Positions 317-62,457 of a stretch of DNA of 64,000 bases are shown in pieces. This DNA comes from an uncultured Candidatus Peribacteria bacterium (GTDB taxonomy: Bacteria > Patescibacteriota > Gracilibacteria > RBG-16-42-10), in assembly GCA_964514565.1 (NCBI GenBank), contig CAZERA010000001.1:372001-436000 (forward strand), in the 5' to 3' direction. Positions within the stretch are counted from its first letter, which is position 1. The number at the start of each line of letters is the position of its first letter. A program made the position numbers and the translations under genes. The notes under the pieces are model-generated. The model had not been told where the DNA came from. It did not search any database and saw only the letters and a list, made by a program, of their open reading frames with translations.

Positions 317-1298
317 CAAAGGTTTTATTGGTAGCTTTGCGTCCTTGTGGTGTTCTTTCGATTAAACCTTCTTGTACCAAGTATGGCTCATAGACATTGA
401 GCAAGGTTTCTTCGGTTTCATTACAAGCAGAGGCTAGTGTTTTCACTCCTATCGCTCTACCTTGAAACTTTTCTGCCAACACTCGCAGGAGCATCATGTC
501 ATTGTTGTCCAAGCCATGTTCATTGATGCCTAGTTTTGCTAAGCAATCTACAACAAATATTTCATCAATATGGCCAATGTCCGCAATATTAGCAAAATCA
601 CGAATGCGTTTGAGTAGGCGATTGGCGATACGTGGGGTACCGCGGGACCGATGAGCAATCATTTCTGCTGTACGTTGGTCAATCGTGAGATCTAGCAGTT
701 TTGCTGTACGCACAATAATCTGACCGAGTTCGCTAACTGTATAAAATTGTAATCGAAGCGTCTCCCCAAAACGGTGACGCAGTGGAGCTGAAAGATCGCC
801 ACTTCTGGTAGTAGCACCAATCAAAGTAAATGGTGGCAATGGTAGCGATATAGCTTCGCTAGTATGGCCTTTGCCCACCGTAATATCTAATCTAAAGTCT
901 TCCATCGCGGTATAGAGCATTTCTTCCAAGGGCAGCTTTAAACGATGTATCTCATCGATAAAGATCACAGTGTGTGGCTTGGTGGTACTGAGTAAGCTGA
1001 TAATATCCGCTGGTCTTTGTAAAGCTGTACCAGCACTAATGGTTAAATTAGCTTCCATCTCATTGGCAATCACCGTCGCGAGAGTGGTTTTCCCTAGTCC
1101 TGGCGGTCCAACCAATAACATATGATCCAATGCATCATGACGTTTTCGTGCTGCTTGAATGAATACATTCAAGTTATTCTTGATGTCAGTTTGGCCAATA
1201 TACTCACTCAGTTTCTTGGGTCTGAGACTAATCTCCCAAGTTTCGTCAGGAGCTGTAACTGTGGTTTGAATTGGTTTAACGTTGGTGGGTTTGCGCAT
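237..1298 (-). CDS. ruvB: Holliday junction branch migration helicase RuvB
   Basis: LRPKKLSEYIGQ, Walker A GPPGLGKTT, FIDEIHRL, GATTR, RGTPRIANRLL, YEPYL, RTPQGR. Confidence 0.97.
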   Translation of the reverse strand: MRKPTNVKPIQTTVTAPDETWEISLRPKKLSEYIGQTDIKNNLNVFIQAARKRHDALDHMLLVGPPGLGKTTLATVIANEMEANLTISAGTALQRPADIISLLSTTKPHTVIFIDEIHRLKLPLEEMLYTAMEDFRLDITVGKGHTSEAISLPLPPFTLIGATTRSGDLSAPLRHRFGETLRLQFYTVSELGQIIVRTAKLLDLTIDQRTAEMIAHRSRGTPRIANRLLKRIRDFANIADIGHIDEIFVVDCLAKLGINEHGLDNNDMMLLRVLAEKFQGRAIGVKTLASACNETEETLLNVYEPYLVQEGLIERTPQGRKATNKTFAILGLPSPQSENETGSSSLEKLFGKL

Positions 1299-1836
1299 AT
1301 TTTTGAATAGCTAAAGTCACCGCTTGGCCGGAAGAAATATCTTCAGGGAGGTCTAGGAGTAGTTCCTGAACGACACTTGGATCATAGCCCAGATTGACTA
1401 AGGTTTCAGTGGCAGTTTGATGTGCCCGTGGTTTTTCTAGGGTGGGTAAATGAGGGTTTTCGGTTAGTTCGATCAAGATCTTGAGGGCGGTTTTCTTACC
1501 AATGCCTGATATCCCTTCAAAAAAGACTTTGTCACTTCTCAAGATAGCTTGATGTAGTGGCTCGATTCCCTTACTCAGAATATTGAGAGCAGTCTTGGGA
1601 CCAATGCCTGAAATATTAATTAATAACTTGAACCATTTCTTTTCACTCATGGTAACAAAACCAAACAGTAAGTATTGTTCAGTAGTGAGATGCGGATGAA
1701 TAAATAAAGTGATCTGTTGATCCAATAAATAGGTATAGTGATGTGGCACTAACACTTCATAACCAATATTATTGGTCGTGATCAGCAAGGTATTTTCTTG
1801 GCTGGAGAGAATAGTGCCGGAAAGGTAATGAATCAT
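1276..1836 (-). CDS. ruvA: Holliday junction DNA-binding protein RuvA
   Basis: MIHYLSG start, GYEV, LFGF, two HhH motifs (ISGIGPKTA, ISGIGKKTA), LVNLGY C-terminal domain; upstream of ruvB. Confidence 0.95.
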   Translation of the reverse strand: MIHYLSGTILSSQENTLLITTNNIGYEVLVPHHYTYLLDQQITLFIHPHLTTEQYLLFGFVTMSEKKWFKLLINISGIGPKTALNILSKGIEPLHQAILRSDKVFFEGISGIGKKTALKILIELTENPHLPTLEKPRAHQTATETLVNLGYDPSVVQELLLDLPEDISSGQAVTLAIQKYAQTHQR

Positions 1837-56704: not shown

Positions 56705-57313
56705 CTATTCGTGCTCAAAAAGCCGATATGGGCGTCTGTCTACAGAGAATTCTTGGCCAACCATAATAATTCCTTCTTCAAACACACTTCCTACCACCCC
56801 ACGGATCCCCATGGCTAACTTAGCAAACTCAGCAGCTCTGGCTTGTGGATAATATTTTTCAATTTGCTCTCCTGCACCTTTGCAAGGCAAGTTTTCTGAC
56901 ATCAATAGCCAACTGCATTCCGGAAATGCTAAAAGTGATGTGGGCGGTAATTGTGTAAATTTAGGAATACCGCTTACTAGCATATTTGCTCCTACTAATT
57001 GAGCTAAATGTTTAGCTATTTCAAAGGTTTTAGGCAGATTATATTTCTCAGCCAGGACTAACATTTCTTCAACTGAAACAGCGCTCCATTGTCTCCAATT
57101 CATTACTTTGGCTCTAATCTCAGTTTTTGGTCTCAAAAATATCTCTCTTTCGCGCACACCACTAGTATCGCGAAACTTGCCTGCATGTTTATCGCCTTCA
57201 ATGCCCAGTAAGGTACAGCGAATTTGATCTCGAAATGATGAAATCTTGTCGTCCGGCGGACTGTCGACCATGAGAGCTTCGACGAGCCCTATTAGTTTTA
57301 CTTTTTCACTCAT
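56705..57313 (-). CDS. MOSC domain protein
   Basis: GIEGDKH.G, RQ.S.VS.EE, GAN.LV.G, N.PC, RG.V..V...G.I..G. Confidence 0.8.
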   Translation of the reverse strand: MSEKVKLIGLVEALMVDSPPDDKISSFRDQIRCTLLGIEGDKHAGKFRDTSGVREREIFLRPKTEIRAKVMNWRQWSAVSVEEMLVLAEKYNLPKTFEIAKHLAQLVGANMLVSGIPKFTQLPPTSLLAFPECSWLLMSENLPCKGAGEQIEKYYPQARAAEFAKLAMGIRGVVGSVFEEGIIMVGQEFSVDRRPYRLFEHE

Positions 57314-57471
57314 GATTACTAATTCATTAGTACATTACTTAAACATAAACTGTTGCTTAGAGCAATAATCTTCATGATATCTTATTGTTCACAAACGATT
57401 GTTCGAAAATGGGGATACTACTGGTATTTGGGTTAGAAACTCTGCTAGTATCAATCCTCCTATTCATTGCC

Positions 57472-57855
57472 ATGAATGCTACTTCTCAACTGAGCTCACG
57501 AGCGTTAATTCTTCCCTTGGGGCAACGGGATCGTACCTGGTCTTTCACTTTGGATCCAAAAGAAGTACTGAATGTGATTGGTTATCAGAAAATTGATCGG
57601 TTGATGATCTGGGAAATTTTAGCTGCTCGCCAAGGCGTAGAGCAGGAGCATTTTGCGCGAGTAAACGCTATTTTGACGGCGGTATTGGTAGAGCTACGAC
57701 TGAGTGGGTGGATTGAACATGAAGACGTGCGTGGTAGGGTTTGGTACAGAAGAACTATCAACCAATCGTTGGGTAGTGATTATCCTTTTAGCCGACACTT
57801 TTTAAATGGTTTGCGAAGAAAGTTTGCGCGAGAACCTGAAAAAGCTGGACTGTAG
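57472..57855 (+). CDS. hypothetical protein, possibly winged-helix
   Basis: LVELRLSGWIE.....RVWYRRT resembles a PadR/MarR-type wing; start uncertain (57385 alternative). Confidence 0.45.
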   Translation: MNATSQLSSRALILPLGQRDRTWSFTLDPKEVLNVIGYQKIDRLMIWEILAARQGVEQEHFARVNAILTAVLVELRLSGWIEHEDVRGRVWYRRTINQSLGSDYPFSRHFLNGLRRKFAREPEKAGL

Positions 57856-57947
57856 AAACCGTTGATAAGGTCATTCTCTTGCTAAGAAAAGTGGGGTCTT
57901 TACAGATCAGAACTATGGTGTATTTTGTAAGCAGGTCACAGAACACT

Positions 57948-58016
57948 ATGTTTCATCCTTCTGCTCACAACTTTGCTTACTATTATTACGCTCATTACTG
58001 CGTGAGGAATATTTAG
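57948..58016 (+). CDS. putative leader peptide MFHPSAHNFAYYYYAHYCVRNI
   Basis: 22-codon uORF with four consecutive Tyr codons, lying before a terminator in the 5' leader of the 58088 gene. Confidence 0.55.
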   Translation: MFHPSAHNFAYYYYAHYCVRNI

Positions 58017-58040
58017 TGATCAAATTTTATTTCGATTTCT

Positions 58041-58073
58041 AAAGCACCTCACATCAGTGGGGCGCTTTTTTTT
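58041..58073 (+). terminator. intrinsic terminator in a 5' leader (attenuator)
   Basis: AAAGCACCTCAC-ATCA-GTGGGGCGCTTT plus T-run, ending 14 nt upstream of ATG 58088. Confidence 0.8.
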
Positions 58074-58087
58074 ATTAATTATATTTT

Positions 58088-58987
58088 ATGAAAAACCATC
58101 AACAAATTTTCGGAAAAGGAGTAGAGGTAGAAGGATTTTTACTCAGAGATGACGGGAGTGTAGTAGAGCTAATCAATGGAAAGCCAGCAGCAGAGTTGGT
58201 GATTGCAGAAGTAACTCGAAGACATCCTGGTTTGCATGGTTCATTAACACTAGAACAAGCTTCACCAATAGTGGAAATCAGTACTGGTGTACATAACGAC
58301 TTTGCCACTGCTATCGACGAAATATTTGAGAAGAAAACTTTACTCAATGCGGTAGCTGCCAGACACGGAGCAAGTTTGGTTTTTACACCTGTACCACCCA
58401 AACCATTTCGTTTTATTGCTGCTTCTTCTGACCCAACTTCGCATTCATTTCAATTGGTTGAAGAATGGAGCAAGGCAGTGGATGGCGATGAACAGCTCTT
58501 GGCAACTGCGACAGCATCAGTACAGTTTAATACCTCCACTCTTTTTCGAGGCAAAAACCAACGCCAACGTTGGGAGATTGCTAGAGCTGTTCATAACAAA
58601 CTGAGTAGCAACTTTGCGGTTTTGAATAAAGAAAATGGAAAATTGGTAGATGCTCGCGGGCGAACAAGATTAGAGATTGCGGGATGGCTGCTGCACCGGG
58701 TGAAAGCAGAACGGTTTGCTGCTAAAGGGATGCCAATTGAATGGAGTACTGTGCCACCACCATTTGAAGGTGTAAAAGCGATGCAATGGTGGATGTGTGC
58801 TCATTCAGATGTCAGGAACATTCGAAAGGCAGAGTGTAAAAAAGAGCATGCTTTTACTGGGAAAATAAAGCGCCAAGGATTCTGGGCTGTGGAGACTCGC
58901 ATCGATGATGCTGTCGATAGCGCAAAAGCCATGCTAAATTTAGCTCGTGCTAGAGAACGACTTTTAAATGAAGCTCTATGCGAATAA
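58088..58987 (+). CDS. glutamate--cysteine ligase family 2 (GCS2)/carboxylate-amine ligase-like protein
   Basis: GVEVEGFL (GxExE), LE...IVEISTGV, ASVQFN (S.H/Q.x), late K...VETRI.D. Confidence 0.72.
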   Translation: MKNHQQIFGKGVEVEGFLLRDDGSVVELINGKPAAELVIAEVTRRHPGLHGSLTLEQASPIVEISTGVHNDFATAIDEIFEKKTLLNAVAARHGASLVFTPVPPKPFRFIAASSDPTSHSFQLVEEWSKAVDGDEQLLATATASVQFNTSTLFRGKNQRQRWEIARAVHNKLSSNFAVLNKENGKLVDARGRTRLEIAGWLLHRVKAERFAAKGMPIEWSTVPPPFEGVKAMQWWMCAHSDVRNIRKAECKKEHAFTGKIKRQGFWAVETRIDDAVDSAKAMLNLARARERLLNEALCE

Positions 58988-59685
58988 TAATTGTTGATTT
59001 AATTGATTTCCCAGGTGTGGATGCTTTGAACAATGTGAAGCAAGTATTGGATCAGTATGCAACTAGTCACATCGAGTGGGAGAGAGTGGCTTTGAATAGT
59101 GGTAATCCACAATTAGAGAAGCTTGCTCAAGCTGATAAAGTCCTGATTTCTGGCTCCAAGTGGTCTACTTATGAAGAGATTCCTTGGAAAAAAGATCTGG
59201 AGCAGATTTATAAAGCACTAGCTGAGAAACAGATTTCTACCTATGCAGTATGTTTTGGCGCTCAATTTTTAGCGCAATTCTTGGGTGGAAAAGTAAGCAA
59301 GAATCCTCATGGGACGGAATTTGGTTCGATCTCTGTCAGCCTGACTGAAGCTGGCAAAAAGAATGCTTTGCTTCAAGGTTTTGATCAAGAGCGAAAGCTG
59401 CATGCTACTCACAATGATCATATCGAGACACTGCCTGGATCTTGTGAACTGCTAGCTTATAATGACAATACTGCTGTACAAGCTTTTCACTATCAAAACT
59501 TTTTTGCTACGCAGTTTCATCCAGATATTCCGCTCCATGAGATTGAAGGACTACTGAATGGTAGAAAAGAAAAGTATCAAGCTAGCGGAGTAATACGTGA
59601 TGAAGAACACTTTAAACAGACGAAAGAAGATTTGAAGCTAGGCCGGGCTGGTTATCAGATACTAGCTCGATTCTTGTCATTGTAA
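58978..59685 (+). CDS. class I glutamine amidotransferase / gamma-glutamyl peptidase-like protein
   Basis: ISGS, VCFGAQ (Cys nucleophile), H.D.I..LP, QFHPD; overlaps the ligase stop. Confidence 0.9.
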   Translation: MRIIIVDLIDFPGVDALNNVKQVLDQYATSHIEWERVALNSGNPQLEKLAQADKVLISGSKWSTYEEIPWKKDLEQIYKALAEKQISTYAVCFGAQFLAQFLGGKVSKNPHGTEFGSISVSLTEAGKKNALLQGFDQERKLHATHNDHIETLPGSCELLAYNDNTAVQAFHYQNFFATQFHPDIPLHEIEGLLNGRKEKYQASGVIRDEEHFKQTKEDLKLGRAGYQILARFLSL

Positions 59686-59719
59686 GGAGATTGTTGTAGT
59701 TTGATCTCCTTTTAATTTT
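59684..59719 (+). terminator. possible intrinsic terminator after the amidotransferase gene
   Basis: AAGGAGATTG-ttgtagtt-TGATCTCCTT followed by TTAATTTT. Confidence 0.5.
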
Positions 59720-59722
59720 GGG

Positions 59723-60604
59723 ATGTCAGTAAATGAGGCTATTCCTGTAATAACAGTGGTGGTGGATCGTGACGTAGGGGATACGTTTGAGCAAGATATT
59801 CAATATAGACTATCTCGAGTACAATTTCTGTCTCCTGCCAGTGATCGTCTACTTCGTTTACCTGAAGCAGTATTTACTCAAATATGTGAAGCTGCTAGCT
59901 CAGAATCCGCTGCTGTAACTATTGCAACTGCGCGCAGAGCATCAGGAATACGTAAGCAAGCCCGTCGTCGATGGTCTGCAGTTTTGTCTGGAGCTAGCAA
60001 ATCCGATAATGAAGCGGCTCAGATGATGATGGAGAGTCGAGTGAGATTGGTATTCCTACTCGATACATTTGGCGGTTGCGTCAGTACAGAAAAGAAATTG
60101 GTGCGGTATGGTAATCGGGTACGGAGAAATGGCGGAGAGGTATGGGCTTTTGGTAAAAAAAAGGTAAATAGCGCAGGTGCTATGCTATTTATGTCTGCTG
60201 ATCCGGCGCGACGTTACTTACATGAGCATACTTCAGTGCTTTTCCATTTGAGTACTTGGGCAAGAGAGGATAGCTCTCATACACGAACTACACCGCAGAT
60301 TAGTCGAAGTAGATTGCAGGAAATAGCTGATCTAAAGAGAATCCTAGCTACCTCAGTAAGCCATGCTGGTTATGCATCTCACTTGAATAATATGGTAAAA
60401 AGAAAGGATTTAGCTGCCCCCATGGGCGAAGATTTTGATGTAGTATTTTCTGCCCAAGAAGCAAAAAGGTATTGGGGGGTGCATGTGCATGAAAGAGATG
60501 AAATGCTGAATATTTATGGCAGTTTACTGGGAAATAACAAACAAGCTAGAAGGCTTTTGTGCTCACGATCTGCCCGTCCTGTTCAACGATTCTTTGGTGT
60601 TTGA
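59723..60604 (+). CDS. divergent ClpP-like (S14/crotonase-fold) peptidase, paralog 1
   Basis: FLLDTFGG.V, NSAGAMLF (Ser), R.L......FH (His), D..FSAQEA..Y.G. Confidence 0.72.
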   Translation: MSVNEAIPVITVVVDRDVGDTFEQDIQYRLSRVQFLSPASDRLLRLPEAVFTQICEAASSESAAVTIATARRASGIRKQARRRWSAVLSGASKSDNEAAQMMMESRVRLVFLLDTFGGCVSTEKKLVRYGNRVRRNGGEVWAFGKKKVNSAGAMLFMSADPARRYLHEHTSVLFHLSTWAREDSSHTRTTPQISRSRLQEIADLKRILATSVSHAGYASHLNNMVKRKDLAAPMGEDFDVVFSAQEAKRYWGVHVHERDEMLNIYGSLLGNNKQARRLLCSRSARPVQRFFGV

Positions 60605-60682
60605 TGCTAAGTATGTTCACAAAGCTACTTGTTGTTGTAACCGCTTTTTTGTTGTAAGATAGCCTCTTTTTATTTTTTGCTC

Positions 60683-61567
60683 ATGCCATCTGAGGCAGTT
60701 CCTGTAGTTACTATTTTGGTAGCTGGCAGTGTGGAAGATACTTTCCGGCCTGGCTGGGATAATAAACTATCTCGGGTATTGGTTTGGTCAGGACAAAAAG
60801 TACGGCCTACAAAAGTGCCATATGGAATCTTCGCAGAAGTCTGTAGGGCTGCAAATGGTGCCCTAGAGTCTGCTTCATCGGCAGCCAATCGCTCTGCTGC
60901 AGTAGTACGTGCTCATTATCGTGGGCAGTTTTCGACTGTTTTAGACTCAGTCAGTGAACACGATAAGTACGATATACAAGCAATGGTAGAGGGTAGAGCG
61001 AAGTTGATTTTTCTGATTAATACTCCTGGTGGTTGTGTCAGTGCAGAAAAGAAATTGGTGCGATATGCTGATCGAGTACGAAAAAATGGAGGGGAGGTCT
61101 GGGCATTTGGTCAGAAAAAGGTCAGTAGTGCTGGGGCGACAATTTTTATGCATGCAGACAGTGAAAGAAGAATACTTGAAGAAAATACTTCTTTGTACTT
61201 CCATCTCAGTACTGCTGCCAAAAGAGACGAGTCACTTACTATTAGCGATCTACAAATGGAGGGAAATAGGTGGGATGAAGTGGTGGCAATGAAGAGGCTA
61301 TTCGTCGGTGCATGTTTGGATTCATGTTATGCAACTTACTTGGAAAGAATGGTTGATTCATTGAGCAGTAAGACTCCTTTGGGTAAAGATCTAGAATGGC
61401 GATTTTCTGCAAAAGAAGCACAGCAACTCTGGAAAGTAGCGCCTCGCACCGTGCAAATGTTTAGGTCTTCATACGCTAGTATCTTTGAGGATGATAGTTC
61501 AGCACAAACATTTTTGGCCAGTCGAGAAGCTAGTGGCATCAACAAATTTCTTGAGCACCATTTATAG
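60683..61567 (+). CDS. divergent ClpP-like peptidase, paralog 2
   Basis: FLINTPGG.V, SSAGATIF, FHLST, E..FSAKEA. Confidence 0.75.
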   Translation: MPSEAVPVVTILVAGSVEDTFRPGWDNKLSRVLVWSGQKVRPTKVPYGIFAEVCRAANGALESASSAANRSAAVVRAHYRGQFSTVLDSVSEHDKYDIQAMVEGRAKLIFLINTPGGCVSAEKKLVRYADRVRKNGGEVWAFGQKKVSSAGATIFMHADSERRILEENTSLYFHLSTAAKRDESLTISDLQMEGNRWDEVVAMKRLFVGACLDSCYATYLERMVDSLSSKTPLGKDLEWRFSAKEAQQLWKVAPRTVQMFRSSYASIFEDDSSAQTFLASREASGINKFLEHHL

Positions 61568-61569
61568 CA

Positions 61570-62457
61570 ATGAAACGCAATCTTCCTACCGTTACTTTTG
61601 TGCTTGATGATGATCTAGAGAAAGCCTTTGTGCCTGATATTCGCGGGAGACTGAGGAATGTGCTTTTTACACCTGCTAAGCAATTAAGTTTTGTGCCCCT
61701 AGATAAAGCTGTCCTCTATGAAGCTCTCAATGTGTTTACTTGGCGGAAATATCCGCGTGGGGAAATCACTACTAGGGCTTTGGTAGAGGTGATAGTACAA
61801 CAAAGTGAAGAAAAGTTTGCTGCTGCCTGTGGACAAGCTGACCCAGTGTCGCAAAAGATTGCGCATACTATTTTTAGCGAACCTCATCGAGTAGTTTTTT
61901 TGTTAAATACTCCAGGTGGGTATGTCTCTACTGGGGATAAATTTACTAATTATATCGATCATGTCCAAAGATTGGCTGGGGAGGCTTGGGCATATGGCAA
62001 TGGATATGTGAATAGTACTGCTGCTGACTTGTTGATGGATGTTCCTGCCAGATGTCGGCATTTGCATAAAGATACCGAACTGCTTTTCCATTTGAGTACT
62101 GGCGCTAGAGTTGATGCGGCCCATACGCTCAGCACCGAAAAGATGGCTGAAGCTAGAGCTACTGAACTGGCTAGTATGAAGGAAATGTTTAGGCGGGCTA
62201 CTTATCATCCTGATCATGCCCAGTATGTGGTTGATTTGGTGGATCGAGCTAGTCTGAAACCGGCAATTGGTGAAGATGTAGAGGTAGTATTTAGTGCCGC
62301 TGAGACACAACTGCTTTGGCATGTCGGTTGTCACAGCGGACCTGATTTGCTTTGGCATTATCTGCGAAACCTGAAGCCAAGAACCAAAAGCAGTACGTTG
62401 GAAAAGTTTATCAGCCTACCTGATGCTCGACCGATTGCTAAATTTTTTGGTTTGTAA
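61570..62457 (+). CDS. divergent ClpP-like peptidase, paralog 3
   Basis: FLLNTPGGYV.TG, NSTAA.LL, FHLST, E..FSAAET. Confidence 0.75.
   Translation: MKRNLPTVTFVLDDDLEKAFVPDIRGRLRNVLFTPAKQLSFVPLDKAVLYEALNVFTWRKYPRGEITTRALVEVIVQQSEEKFAAACGQADPVSQKIAHTIFSEPHRVVFLLNTPGGYVSTGDKFTNYIDHVQRLAGEAWAYGNGYVNSTAADLLMDVPARCRHLHKDTELLFHLSTGARVDAAHTLSTEKMAEARATELASMKEMFRRATYHPDHAQYVVDLVDRASLKPAIGEDVEVVFSAAETQLLWHVGCHSGPDLLWHYLRNLKPRTKSSTLEKFISLPDARPIAKFFGL

Follow-up and report, generated by a model that had tools for sequence, protein, structure and literature searches.

Leader-peptide attenuation of transcription is a textbook mechanism, and the T-box riboswitch is the usual tRNA-sensing control of tyrosine genes in Firmicutes. 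The leader that we analyze here lies in a 64,000-nucleotide stretch of DNA (the window, G000:C1:372001-436000) from a small-genome, Peribacteria-like bacterium of the Candidate Phyla Radiation (CPR), just upstream of the genes for an orphan carboxylate-amine ligase and a class-I glutamine amidotransferase-like protein. Among described systems, passages of PMC3082878 and PMC11802643 present attenuators of aromatic amino-acid genes that use Phe (pheL and pheST) or Trp (trpL), together with the Phe-responsive aroR leader; a section of PMC1262725 places Phe, His, and Thr genes under attenuators and Tyr genes under T-boxes, and according to part of PMC11802643 tyrosine genes are also under repressors. 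The literature that we searched, which did not extend to subscription journals and therefore is weak evidence of absence, yielded nothing relevant on a Tyr leader-peptide attenuator, and a full-text search with the same coverage found no paper on leader-peptide attenuation in the CPR. Our analysis makes it very likely that the leader in the window is a ribosome-mediated transcription attenuator sensing charged tRNA-Tyr, that is, a known mechanism found here in a CPR bacterium, with a leader peptide of the Tyr type and a new target gene family.

The leader, which like the other window features described below is on the forward strand, has a compact organization. All elements named in a preliminary description of this DNA, made from the letters alone, were recovered at the same positions by direct reading, scanning, and folding. 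A promoter-like site (57899-57926) consists of a -35 hexamer TTTACA (57899-57904), a 16-nucleotide spacer, and a -10 hexamer TATTTT (57921-57926), with 9 of 12 matches in a promoter/terminator scan. It is followed by a short upstream open reading frame (uORF, 57948-58016), running from an ATG at 57948 to a TAG stop codon at 58014-58016, which specifies in 22 codons the peptide MFHPSAHNFAYYYYAHYCVRNI. Four of its five Tyr codons form an uninterrupted run, TAC TAT TAT TAC (57978-57989), corresponding to the putative regulatory codons 11-14, and the fifth (Tyr17, 57996-57998) brings the density to 5 Tyr in 7 residues; the uORF also holds Phe9 and three His codons. Downstream is an intrinsic terminator (58041-58073), whose core stem in the scan spans 58047-58062 and is followed by a T run, folding extending the stem-loop to 58041-58068, with the T run ending at 58073. 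This G+C-rich stem-loop has a folding energy of -14.8 kcal/mol and a z score of -5.44, and none of 200 shuffled sequences was as good. A mere 14 nucleotides separate the end of the T run from the ATG of the ligase gene at 58088.

Two further pairings involve the uORF. The first is a small hairpin (57986-58005) formed by 57986-57991 and 58000-58005, which is part of the minimum-energy fold. The second is an antiterminator (58002-58052) that competes for the 5' arm of the terminator. Its starting point, the pairing of GTGAGG (58002-58007) with CCTCAC (58047-58052) pointed out in the preliminary description, proved real and even longer than proposed, since it continues through 58012-58016 with 58039-58043 and includes an inner stem. 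There is no Shine-Dalgarno sequence before the uORF, which is no objection to its translation because the genome does not use such sites: they precede 34 of 672 long open reading frames (ORFs; 5.1%), compared with 8.6% of random positions. Initiation in this organism thus seems to be Shine-Dalgarno independent. A T is found at position -1 in 59% of long-ORF starts, preceded by a G-poor sequence, and the start of the uORF, with its T at -1 and G-poor upstream stretch, displays this usual context, as does that of the ligase gene.

We assembled a comparison set of 14 loci in which a ligase homologue is the first gene and has at least 120 nucleotides of upstream DNA, gathered from word, cluster, and genome searches as well as from two collection scans. 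It comprises the window, L002, L003, L023, L025, L011, L012, L013, L014, L018, L017, L019, L024, and L029, which amount to 11 lineages since L024 is closely related to L029 and the window, L002, and L003 are congeneric. The set excludes L010 (the second of two ligase copies, directly after the L017 ligase), L015 (distant, genetic code 25), L016, L020, and L031 (fragments), L027 and L028 (leader identical to that of L023), and L026 and L030 (67 and 77 nucleotides of upstream DNA, respectively), the last two of which have the terminator despite their short upstream DNA. All 14 loci present the same arrangement: a short uORF with an ATG start, whose peptide has 14 to 31 residues, precedes an intrinsic terminator that directly adjoins the start of the ligase gene. 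At least four aromatic residues in a stretch of seven occur in 13 of the 14 uORFs, and a sigma-70-like site lies at most 75 nucleotides upstream of the uORF in 11. Within the genus, both hexamers of the promoter-like site and their spacing are preserved in L002 and L003, the uORF is retained with one to three residue changes and with all Tyr codons kept codon for codon, and the terminator carries compensatory differences in both. Further away, the window uORF is homologous to the leader of L011, which is from another family. In run X3, which holds a roughly 90%-identical relative, none of the differences listed falls at 57919-58055, an observation from which we draw nothing.

The aromatic residue that recurs in these leaders is Tyr, Phe, or Trp. 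Tyr-type leaders are found in the window genus, L011 (YPYYAHY), L012 (NYYRY), and L018 (YQYYSY), and Phe-type leaders in L013 (FFFSFFF), L014, L017 (FFYF), L024 (FFFFAYF), L025 (FFFFF), and L029. Trp is found in L023 (HWW) and, together with Phe, in L019. One genome, G185, has three ligase copies, of which two (L017 and L010, on G185:C77) form a tandem that shares one Phe/Tyr-type leader and the third (L019, on G185:C3) is behind a weakly aromatic Phe/Trp leader.

For each of the 14 leaders, we computed folds of the nascent transcript as far as the loop of the terminator, with the bases under a ribosome (the A-site codon plus 12 nucleotides) barred from pairing. A ribosome placed on the aromatic codons yields pairing between the uORF 3' end and the terminator 5' arm in 14 of 14 leaders, with energies of -12 to -27 kcal/mol, and one placed on the stop codon abolishes this antiterminator pairing, leaving folds of 0 to -2.2 kcal/mol. 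In the window, an A site on Tyr codons 11-14 leaves 58002-58016 free to pair with 58039-58052, and one at Tyr17 or the stop codon covers the antiterminator strand. The two alternative structures of the window are comparably stable: the antiterminator (58002-58052) has an energy of -16.0 kcal/mol and a z score of -4.52, with none of 200 shuffles as good, and is thus energetically competitive with the terminator.

The antiterminator is specific to each leader. When we summed the energies of the cognate duplexes between uORF end and terminator arm over 11 representatives, we obtained -117 kcal/mol, a lower value than in any of 20,000 permutations. The terminator sequence is particular to each leader, as is the upstream strand that matches it. 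Covariation points in the same direction. In the alignment of the window genus with L011, 95.5% of antiterminator cells are paired and 3 of 11 pairs have changed on both sides, once from U-A to C-G and twice from G-C to A-U. In slid controls, 21-57% of cells are paired and at most one pair has changed on both sides. The attenuation logic put forward for the window from its letters is supported at the homologous loci examined, with a uORF, a terminator, and an antiterminator at each of the 14 loci.

These features suggest the following model. Transcription would start at the conserved promoter-like site, about 15 nucleotides before the uORF. With charged tRNA-Tyr at hand, the ribosome would pass the four Tyr codons and reach the stop codon at 58014-58016, covering 58002-58016; as the 5' strand of the antiterminator would then be covered, the terminator at 58041-58073 would form and transcription would end 14 nucleotides before the ligase ATG. 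With tRNA-Tyr scarce, the ribosome would stall on codons 11-14, the free 58002-58016 would pair with 58039-58052 in the 5' arm of the terminator, and RNA polymerase, the terminator being blocked, would read into the ligase and amidotransferase genes. The model presumes that transcription and translation are coupled in the host. Tyr would be the effective signal, a strict specificity that we predict from codon position alone. The genome has one tRNA-Tyr (GTA) and also one tRNA each for Phe and Trp.

Chance offers a poor account of this arrangement. The genome has 946 mostly intergenic ATG ORFs of 10-45 codons, of which three distinct ones contain at least five aromatic residues in seven, and of these three the window uORF alone has a terminator after it. 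It also ranks first, by same-residue run, among 84 intergenic cases of a uORF plus terminator. Of 669 regions that precede long ORFs, 27 contain a uORF with four or more aromatics in seven, and three of these also have a terminator-like hairpin by the start. Genome-wide short-ORF screens found no other aromatic attenuator in the same genome. One candidate, a Trp-Trp-Trp short ORF with a good terminator (G000:C6:16292-16411, reverse strand), was discarded as spurious, being inside a tRNA gene downstream of a ribosomal-protein-like ORF.

Searching the leader DNA in 401 genomes of the class gave convincing matches in its own genus only, always before the ligase gene. The sole other match with an E value below 0.001, in G352 (E 6e-6), was rejected since it is inside an ORF of 446 residues, and the remaining matches are AT-rich noise. 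Neither the window leader nor ten homologous loci gave an above-threshold match in Rfam; the window leader scores 18.1 bits with Leu_leader (RF00512; gathering cut-off 50) and 17.5 bits with Phe_leader (RF01859; gathering cut-off 55). The best Rfam match of the L013 leader is Phe_leader, at exactly the span from uORF to terminator, with 28.9 bits against the gathering cut-off of 55. T-box families are absent from the Rfam matches up to an E value of 10 in 57000-58600.

A number of observations weigh against an attenuator of this kind, or at least against its textbook form. Promoter-like sites occur in the region at chance frequency (8 found versus 7.4 expected from shuffles). While all four classical segments can be drawn, as the preliminary description had done, and the hairpin of segments 1 and 2 (57986-57991 with 58000-58005) does appear in the minimum-energy fold, this hairpin is unneeded in our folds and keeps only 3 of its 6 pairs in L011, the one distant leader that can be aligned; within the genus it is invariant and hence uninformative. 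In addition, ribosome-free nascent folds favor the antiterminator over this hairpin, so that a ribosome would have to reach the stop codon for basal termination to occur. Only part of the classical four-segment scheme is thus realized, and because the hairpin is not conserved and the antiterminator wins in the nascent transcript, we read the mechanism as mainly two-state. The hairpin may add pausing; it is a possible pause or anti-antiterminator element, its role being uncertain. As for expression, 5% of the sampled words are in the only run labeled as RNA, and every run consists of contigs, in which transcript starts and ends are invisible.

Other such observations come from the homologues. 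The L019 leader is weakly aromatic, with three aromatic residues in seven, and the distant homologue L015 has no such uORF. At L015, which is from a Gracilibacteria-type genome using code 25 (TGA = Gly), the ligase homologue (1435 onward) comes directly after a Trp-repressor-family gene (1068-1334, forward strand, PF01371, E 1e-19), which may be a protein-based alternative to the attenuator and one more sign of a connection with aromatics. In the ligase tree, to which leader type does not conform, there is no clean Tyr or Phe clade and the backbone is unresolved, with 6 of 12 inner branches open; this independence weakens any conclusion about substrate drawn from the leader. Conservation of the leader also exceeds that of its neighbors by far, since within the genus its nucleotide identity is 83-85% over about 128 nucleotides, compared with 55-57% for the ligase proteins, and the choice between TAC and TAT is identical, which is more constraint than codon identity alone needs. 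Last, a His-aromatic-Cys triplet is found near the C terminus of three otherwise dissimilar leaders, a recurrence that is unexplained and seems to be more than chance. It is at 57993-58001 in the window (Tyr-type, window genus) and also occurs in L012 (Tyr-type) and L023 (Trp-type), and L011 has a stop codon where the other leaders have the Cys codon of the triplet. Together, the high conservation and the triplet suggest an extra constraint at the RNA or peptide level.

The alternative that best survives these data is that the attenuator is not Tyr-specific, and reports instead a general slowing of translation or a shortage of any aromatic amino acid, the Tyr run being an interchangeable sensor. 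It is true that a ribosome on Phe9 also frees the antiterminator in our folds, but Tyr codons 11-14 are placed exactly where stalling does so, and Tyr17 and the stop codon where it is covered. Similarly, two single-copy ligases from congeneric genomes, 48% identical, are found behind a Tyr-type (L011) and a Phe-type (L013) leader, and L017 and L024 have mixed leaders, yet in genome G388, where two paralogues are 32% identical as proteins, one has a leader of the Phe type and the other a leader of the Tyr type, a situation most easily explained by separate signals. The Corynebacterium aroR leader (Phe-Tyr-Phe) does respond to Phe and not to Tyr, according to the part of PMC11802643 that deals with it, but it is hard to see an interchangeable sensor in four consecutive Tyr codons plus a fifth that have been kept codon for codon in three species. 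We consider a signal other than Tyr improbable.

Hairpins that set stoichiometry are common between the peptide and enzyme genes of peptide natural-product clusters, and the uORF might accordingly encode a small peptide with a function of its own, whether modified by the ligase as its precursor or substrate or secreted as an aromatic peptide, with the hairpin setting the ratio of peptide to enzyme mRNA. A peptide-level role would fit the very high nucleotide conservation of the leader within the genus, the His-aromatic-Cys triplet in three leader groups, and the similarity of the window genus and L011, from different families, beyond the Tyr run. However, nucleotide similarity with L011 continues beyond its earlier stop codon and therefore points, at that place, to a constraint on the RNA rather than on the peptide. 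Moreover, all that the 14 peptides share is an aromatic cluster and its position relative to the RNA switch, with Phe, Tyr, and Trp interchangeable, and there is no conserved core or recognition sequence across the leader peptides of the enzyme family. A stoichiometry terminator also needs no antiterminator, and yet every locus has one overlapping the end of the uORF, with the cognate specificity and covariation reported above. We thus give a functional peptide little credence.

That there is no regulation, so that the hairpin would end the upstream gene or a small non-coding RNA and the Tyr-rich frame would have arisen by chance, is scarcely credible: although the upstream ORF is co-directional in the window, the promoter-to-terminator unit of about 140 nucleotides is as highly conserved as a small RNA would be, and no Rfam family reaches threshold, the 14 nucleotides after the T run leave no room for a separate ligase promoter, the upstream neighbor is divergent at L023, L014, L018, and L011 so that the hairpin is not merely an upstream gene's terminator (an objection that the preliminary description had itself raised), and at 13-14 of 14 loci there is an aromatic ATG frame whose end lies within the antiterminator strand or shortly before it, far above the background of 3 in 669. 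The upstream ORF itself (57385-57855, 156 residues, or 127 from an ATG at 57472) has no family match; it is retained in the same place in L003 (142 residues), and L002 has no ORF of at least 80 residues there.

The first gene behind the Tyr-type attenuator (58088-58987) encodes a protein of 299 residues from an orphan family of carboxylate-amine ligases. It was called GCS2-like in the preliminary description, a label that stands at the level of the fold but not at that of sequence families, as the protein has no Pfam match at E values up to 0.001 and is below the curated cut-offs of PF04107 (18.6 bits versus 21) and TIGR02050 (21.6 versus 176.4). Its structural model, which has a predicted local distance difference test (pLDDT) score of 77.8, displays a YbdK/gamma-glutamylcysteine-ligase fold (Foldseek probability 1.00) and superposes on YbdK (1tt4) with a Z score of 16.1 and a root-mean-square deviation of 3.6 over 237 residues. 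Z scores are 15-16 for glutamate-cysteine ligases of the GshA type, about 12 for glutamine synthetases, and about 10 for Dop/PafA, and the fold matches include a naphthylamine-specific glutamine-synthetase-like enzyme. A sequence profile search of solved structures returned noise, plus YbdK at an E value of 0.83, and in the nearest language-model clusters PF04107 is found in 14-43% of members. Six residues (E13, E15, E56, E63, R194, and R271) are invariant in 25 sequences of the family and, by analogy, would be metal or ATP ligands.

This ligase family is rare. We found 49 clusters at E values up to 0.001 among 1.84 billion representatives, and eight proteins by word search. Of 9 genomes of the order, 5 have it, and samples of 401 genomes each from the class and the phylum gave 12 and 2 with it, respectively. 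Close relatives of the window ligase are on contigs of Candidatus Peribacteria, Peregrinibacteria, and Abawacabacteria. For the family, the source names that we saw for its members are all "hypothetical protein."

The second gene (58978-59685), whose start overlaps the ligase stop by 10 nucleotides, encodes a protein of 235 residues. Its proposed assignment to the class-I amidotransferases is borne out by PF00117 (58.8 bits versus a cut-off of 22.8). Cys92, His181, and Asp183, which we take from the family motif to be the catalytic triad, are invariant in five sequences. Peptidase_C26 is not matched by the window protein and is matched weakly by two homologues (21.3 and 17.4 bits versus 20.5). 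The amidotransferase gene directly follows the ligase gene at the window, L002, L012, L024, and L029, according to scan or alignment, and at L023 according to motif, and is not adjacent to it at L011, L013, L014, L018, L017/L010, and L019. With pairing at about half of the loci, it is the ligase that is the constant target of the attenuator. The two-gene operon ends in a terminator-like hairpin found by the promoter/terminator scan (59684-59711). Beyond it, 59723-62457 (forward strand) holds three ORFs of about 295 residues, of which two have no family match and the middle one has weak NfeD/ClpP-like similarity; a similar ORF follows the operon in L021.

The genome to which the window belongs (1.12 Mb, 41% G+C, 7 contigs, 92.7% complete) lacks matches to chorismate synthase (PF01264), prephenate dehydratase (PF00800), and prephenate dehydrogenase (PF02153), in a search in which the controls matched in 14 of 14 genomes. 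The host is thus a probable aromatic amino-acid auxotroph, as had been surmised from the window. This agrees with PMC4736985, part of which describes Peribacteria as being without most amino-acid biosynthesis and probably living on externally derived amino acids. No gamma-glutamyltranspeptidase was found in the genome. Given the attenuator and the missing pathway, the operon would be switched on under tyrosine shortage in an organism unable to make tyrosine, and its products would presumably relieve a shortage of aromatic amino acids.

By analogy with enzymes of the same fold, we expect the ligase to use ATP to link an amine to a carboxylate, which would most likely be the gamma-carboxyl of glutamate. 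With low confidence, we suggest that its reaction could be the ATP-dependent ligation of glutamate with an aromatic amino acid or amine, for salvage or trapping. By comparison with the PuuA/PuuD and aniline systems, the amidotransferase-like protein could then hydrolyze the product; alternatively, it could donate ammonia. The two-enzyme gamma-glutamyl cycle put forward in the preliminary description is likewise purely hypothetical. A broader proposal, which we make tentatively and regard as doubtful, is that the family is an aromatic amino-acid acquisition enzyme of Phe/Tyr/Trp-auxotrophic candidate-phyla bacteria, the amino acid of each paralogue being written in its leader. One possibility within this proposal is an ATP-driven gamma-glutamyl trapping or salvage of imported aromatics, which the amidotransferase-like protein would release.

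If this is true, attenuators would provide a read-out of substrate specificity for an uncharacterized enzyme family. Whatever its reaction, the attenuator reading implies that the ligase would be switched on by a shortage of tRNA-Tyr, tRNA-Phe, or tRNA-Trp in cells unable to make aromatics, and the existence of a Tyr-run leader with Phe and Trp siblings on one gene family suggests a sensor that can be retargeted by a codon swap. This reading would also mean that host-dependent candidate-phyla bacteria with minimal genomes use control by coupled transcription and translation. Regulation thus offers a functional handle on a rare and unnamed ligase family whose biochemistry is directly testable.

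How does this operon compare with known systems? PuuA/PuuD and the aniline and naphthylamine gamma-glutamylation systems are pairs of a glutamine-synthetase-like ligase and a class-I amidotransferase-like hydrolase. The operon resembles PuuA/PuuD in having a carboxylate-amine ligase gene and then a gene for a class-I amidotransferase fold, but its ligase resembles glutamate-cysteine ligases more closely than it does glutamine synthetases (Z scores of about 16 versus about 12), its amidotransferase matches PF00117 and not Peptidase_C26, and the pairing is limited to about half of the loci. With YbdK/GCS2 and glutamate-cysteine ligases the window ligase shares the fold, and its family has the invariant acidic residues E13, E15, E56, and E63; unlike YbdK, it is about 60-70 residues shorter, below the family cut-offs, and a member of a separate, rare family.

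As for its regulation, the leader resembles trpL and hisL in that the position of the ribosome on regulatory codons would pick antiterminator or terminator. In contrast to these leaders, its 1:2 element is weak and unconserved, and the folds suggest a less elaborate scheme, with direct masking of the antiterminator by a ribosome that has reached the stop codon. The C. glutamicum aroR-aroF leader, as presented in part of PMC11802643, is similar in having a Tyr codon among aromatic codons and an aromatic-linked target. However, it reads Phe-Tyr-Phe, responds to Phe without an effect of Tyr, and controls 3-deoxy-D-arabino-heptulosonate 7-phosphate (DAHP) synthase, whereas the window leader has four to five Tyr codons and its host has no biosynthetic pathway. 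The enterobacterial pheL-pheA and pheST leaders (RF01859) likewise have a short ORF with a run of aromatic codons, a choice between antiterminator and terminator, and a terminator just before the regulated gene, and the Phe-type leaders of the ligase family, such as that of L013, resemble pheL as it appears in passages of PMC3082878 and PMC11802643. Unlike pheL and pheST, the window leader has Tyr codons, scores well below the Rfam gathering cut-off, and is found in a host without Shine-Dalgarno usage, and its target is not an enzyme of biosynthesis or a tRNA synthetase, but an orphan ligase in a probable aromatic auxotroph.

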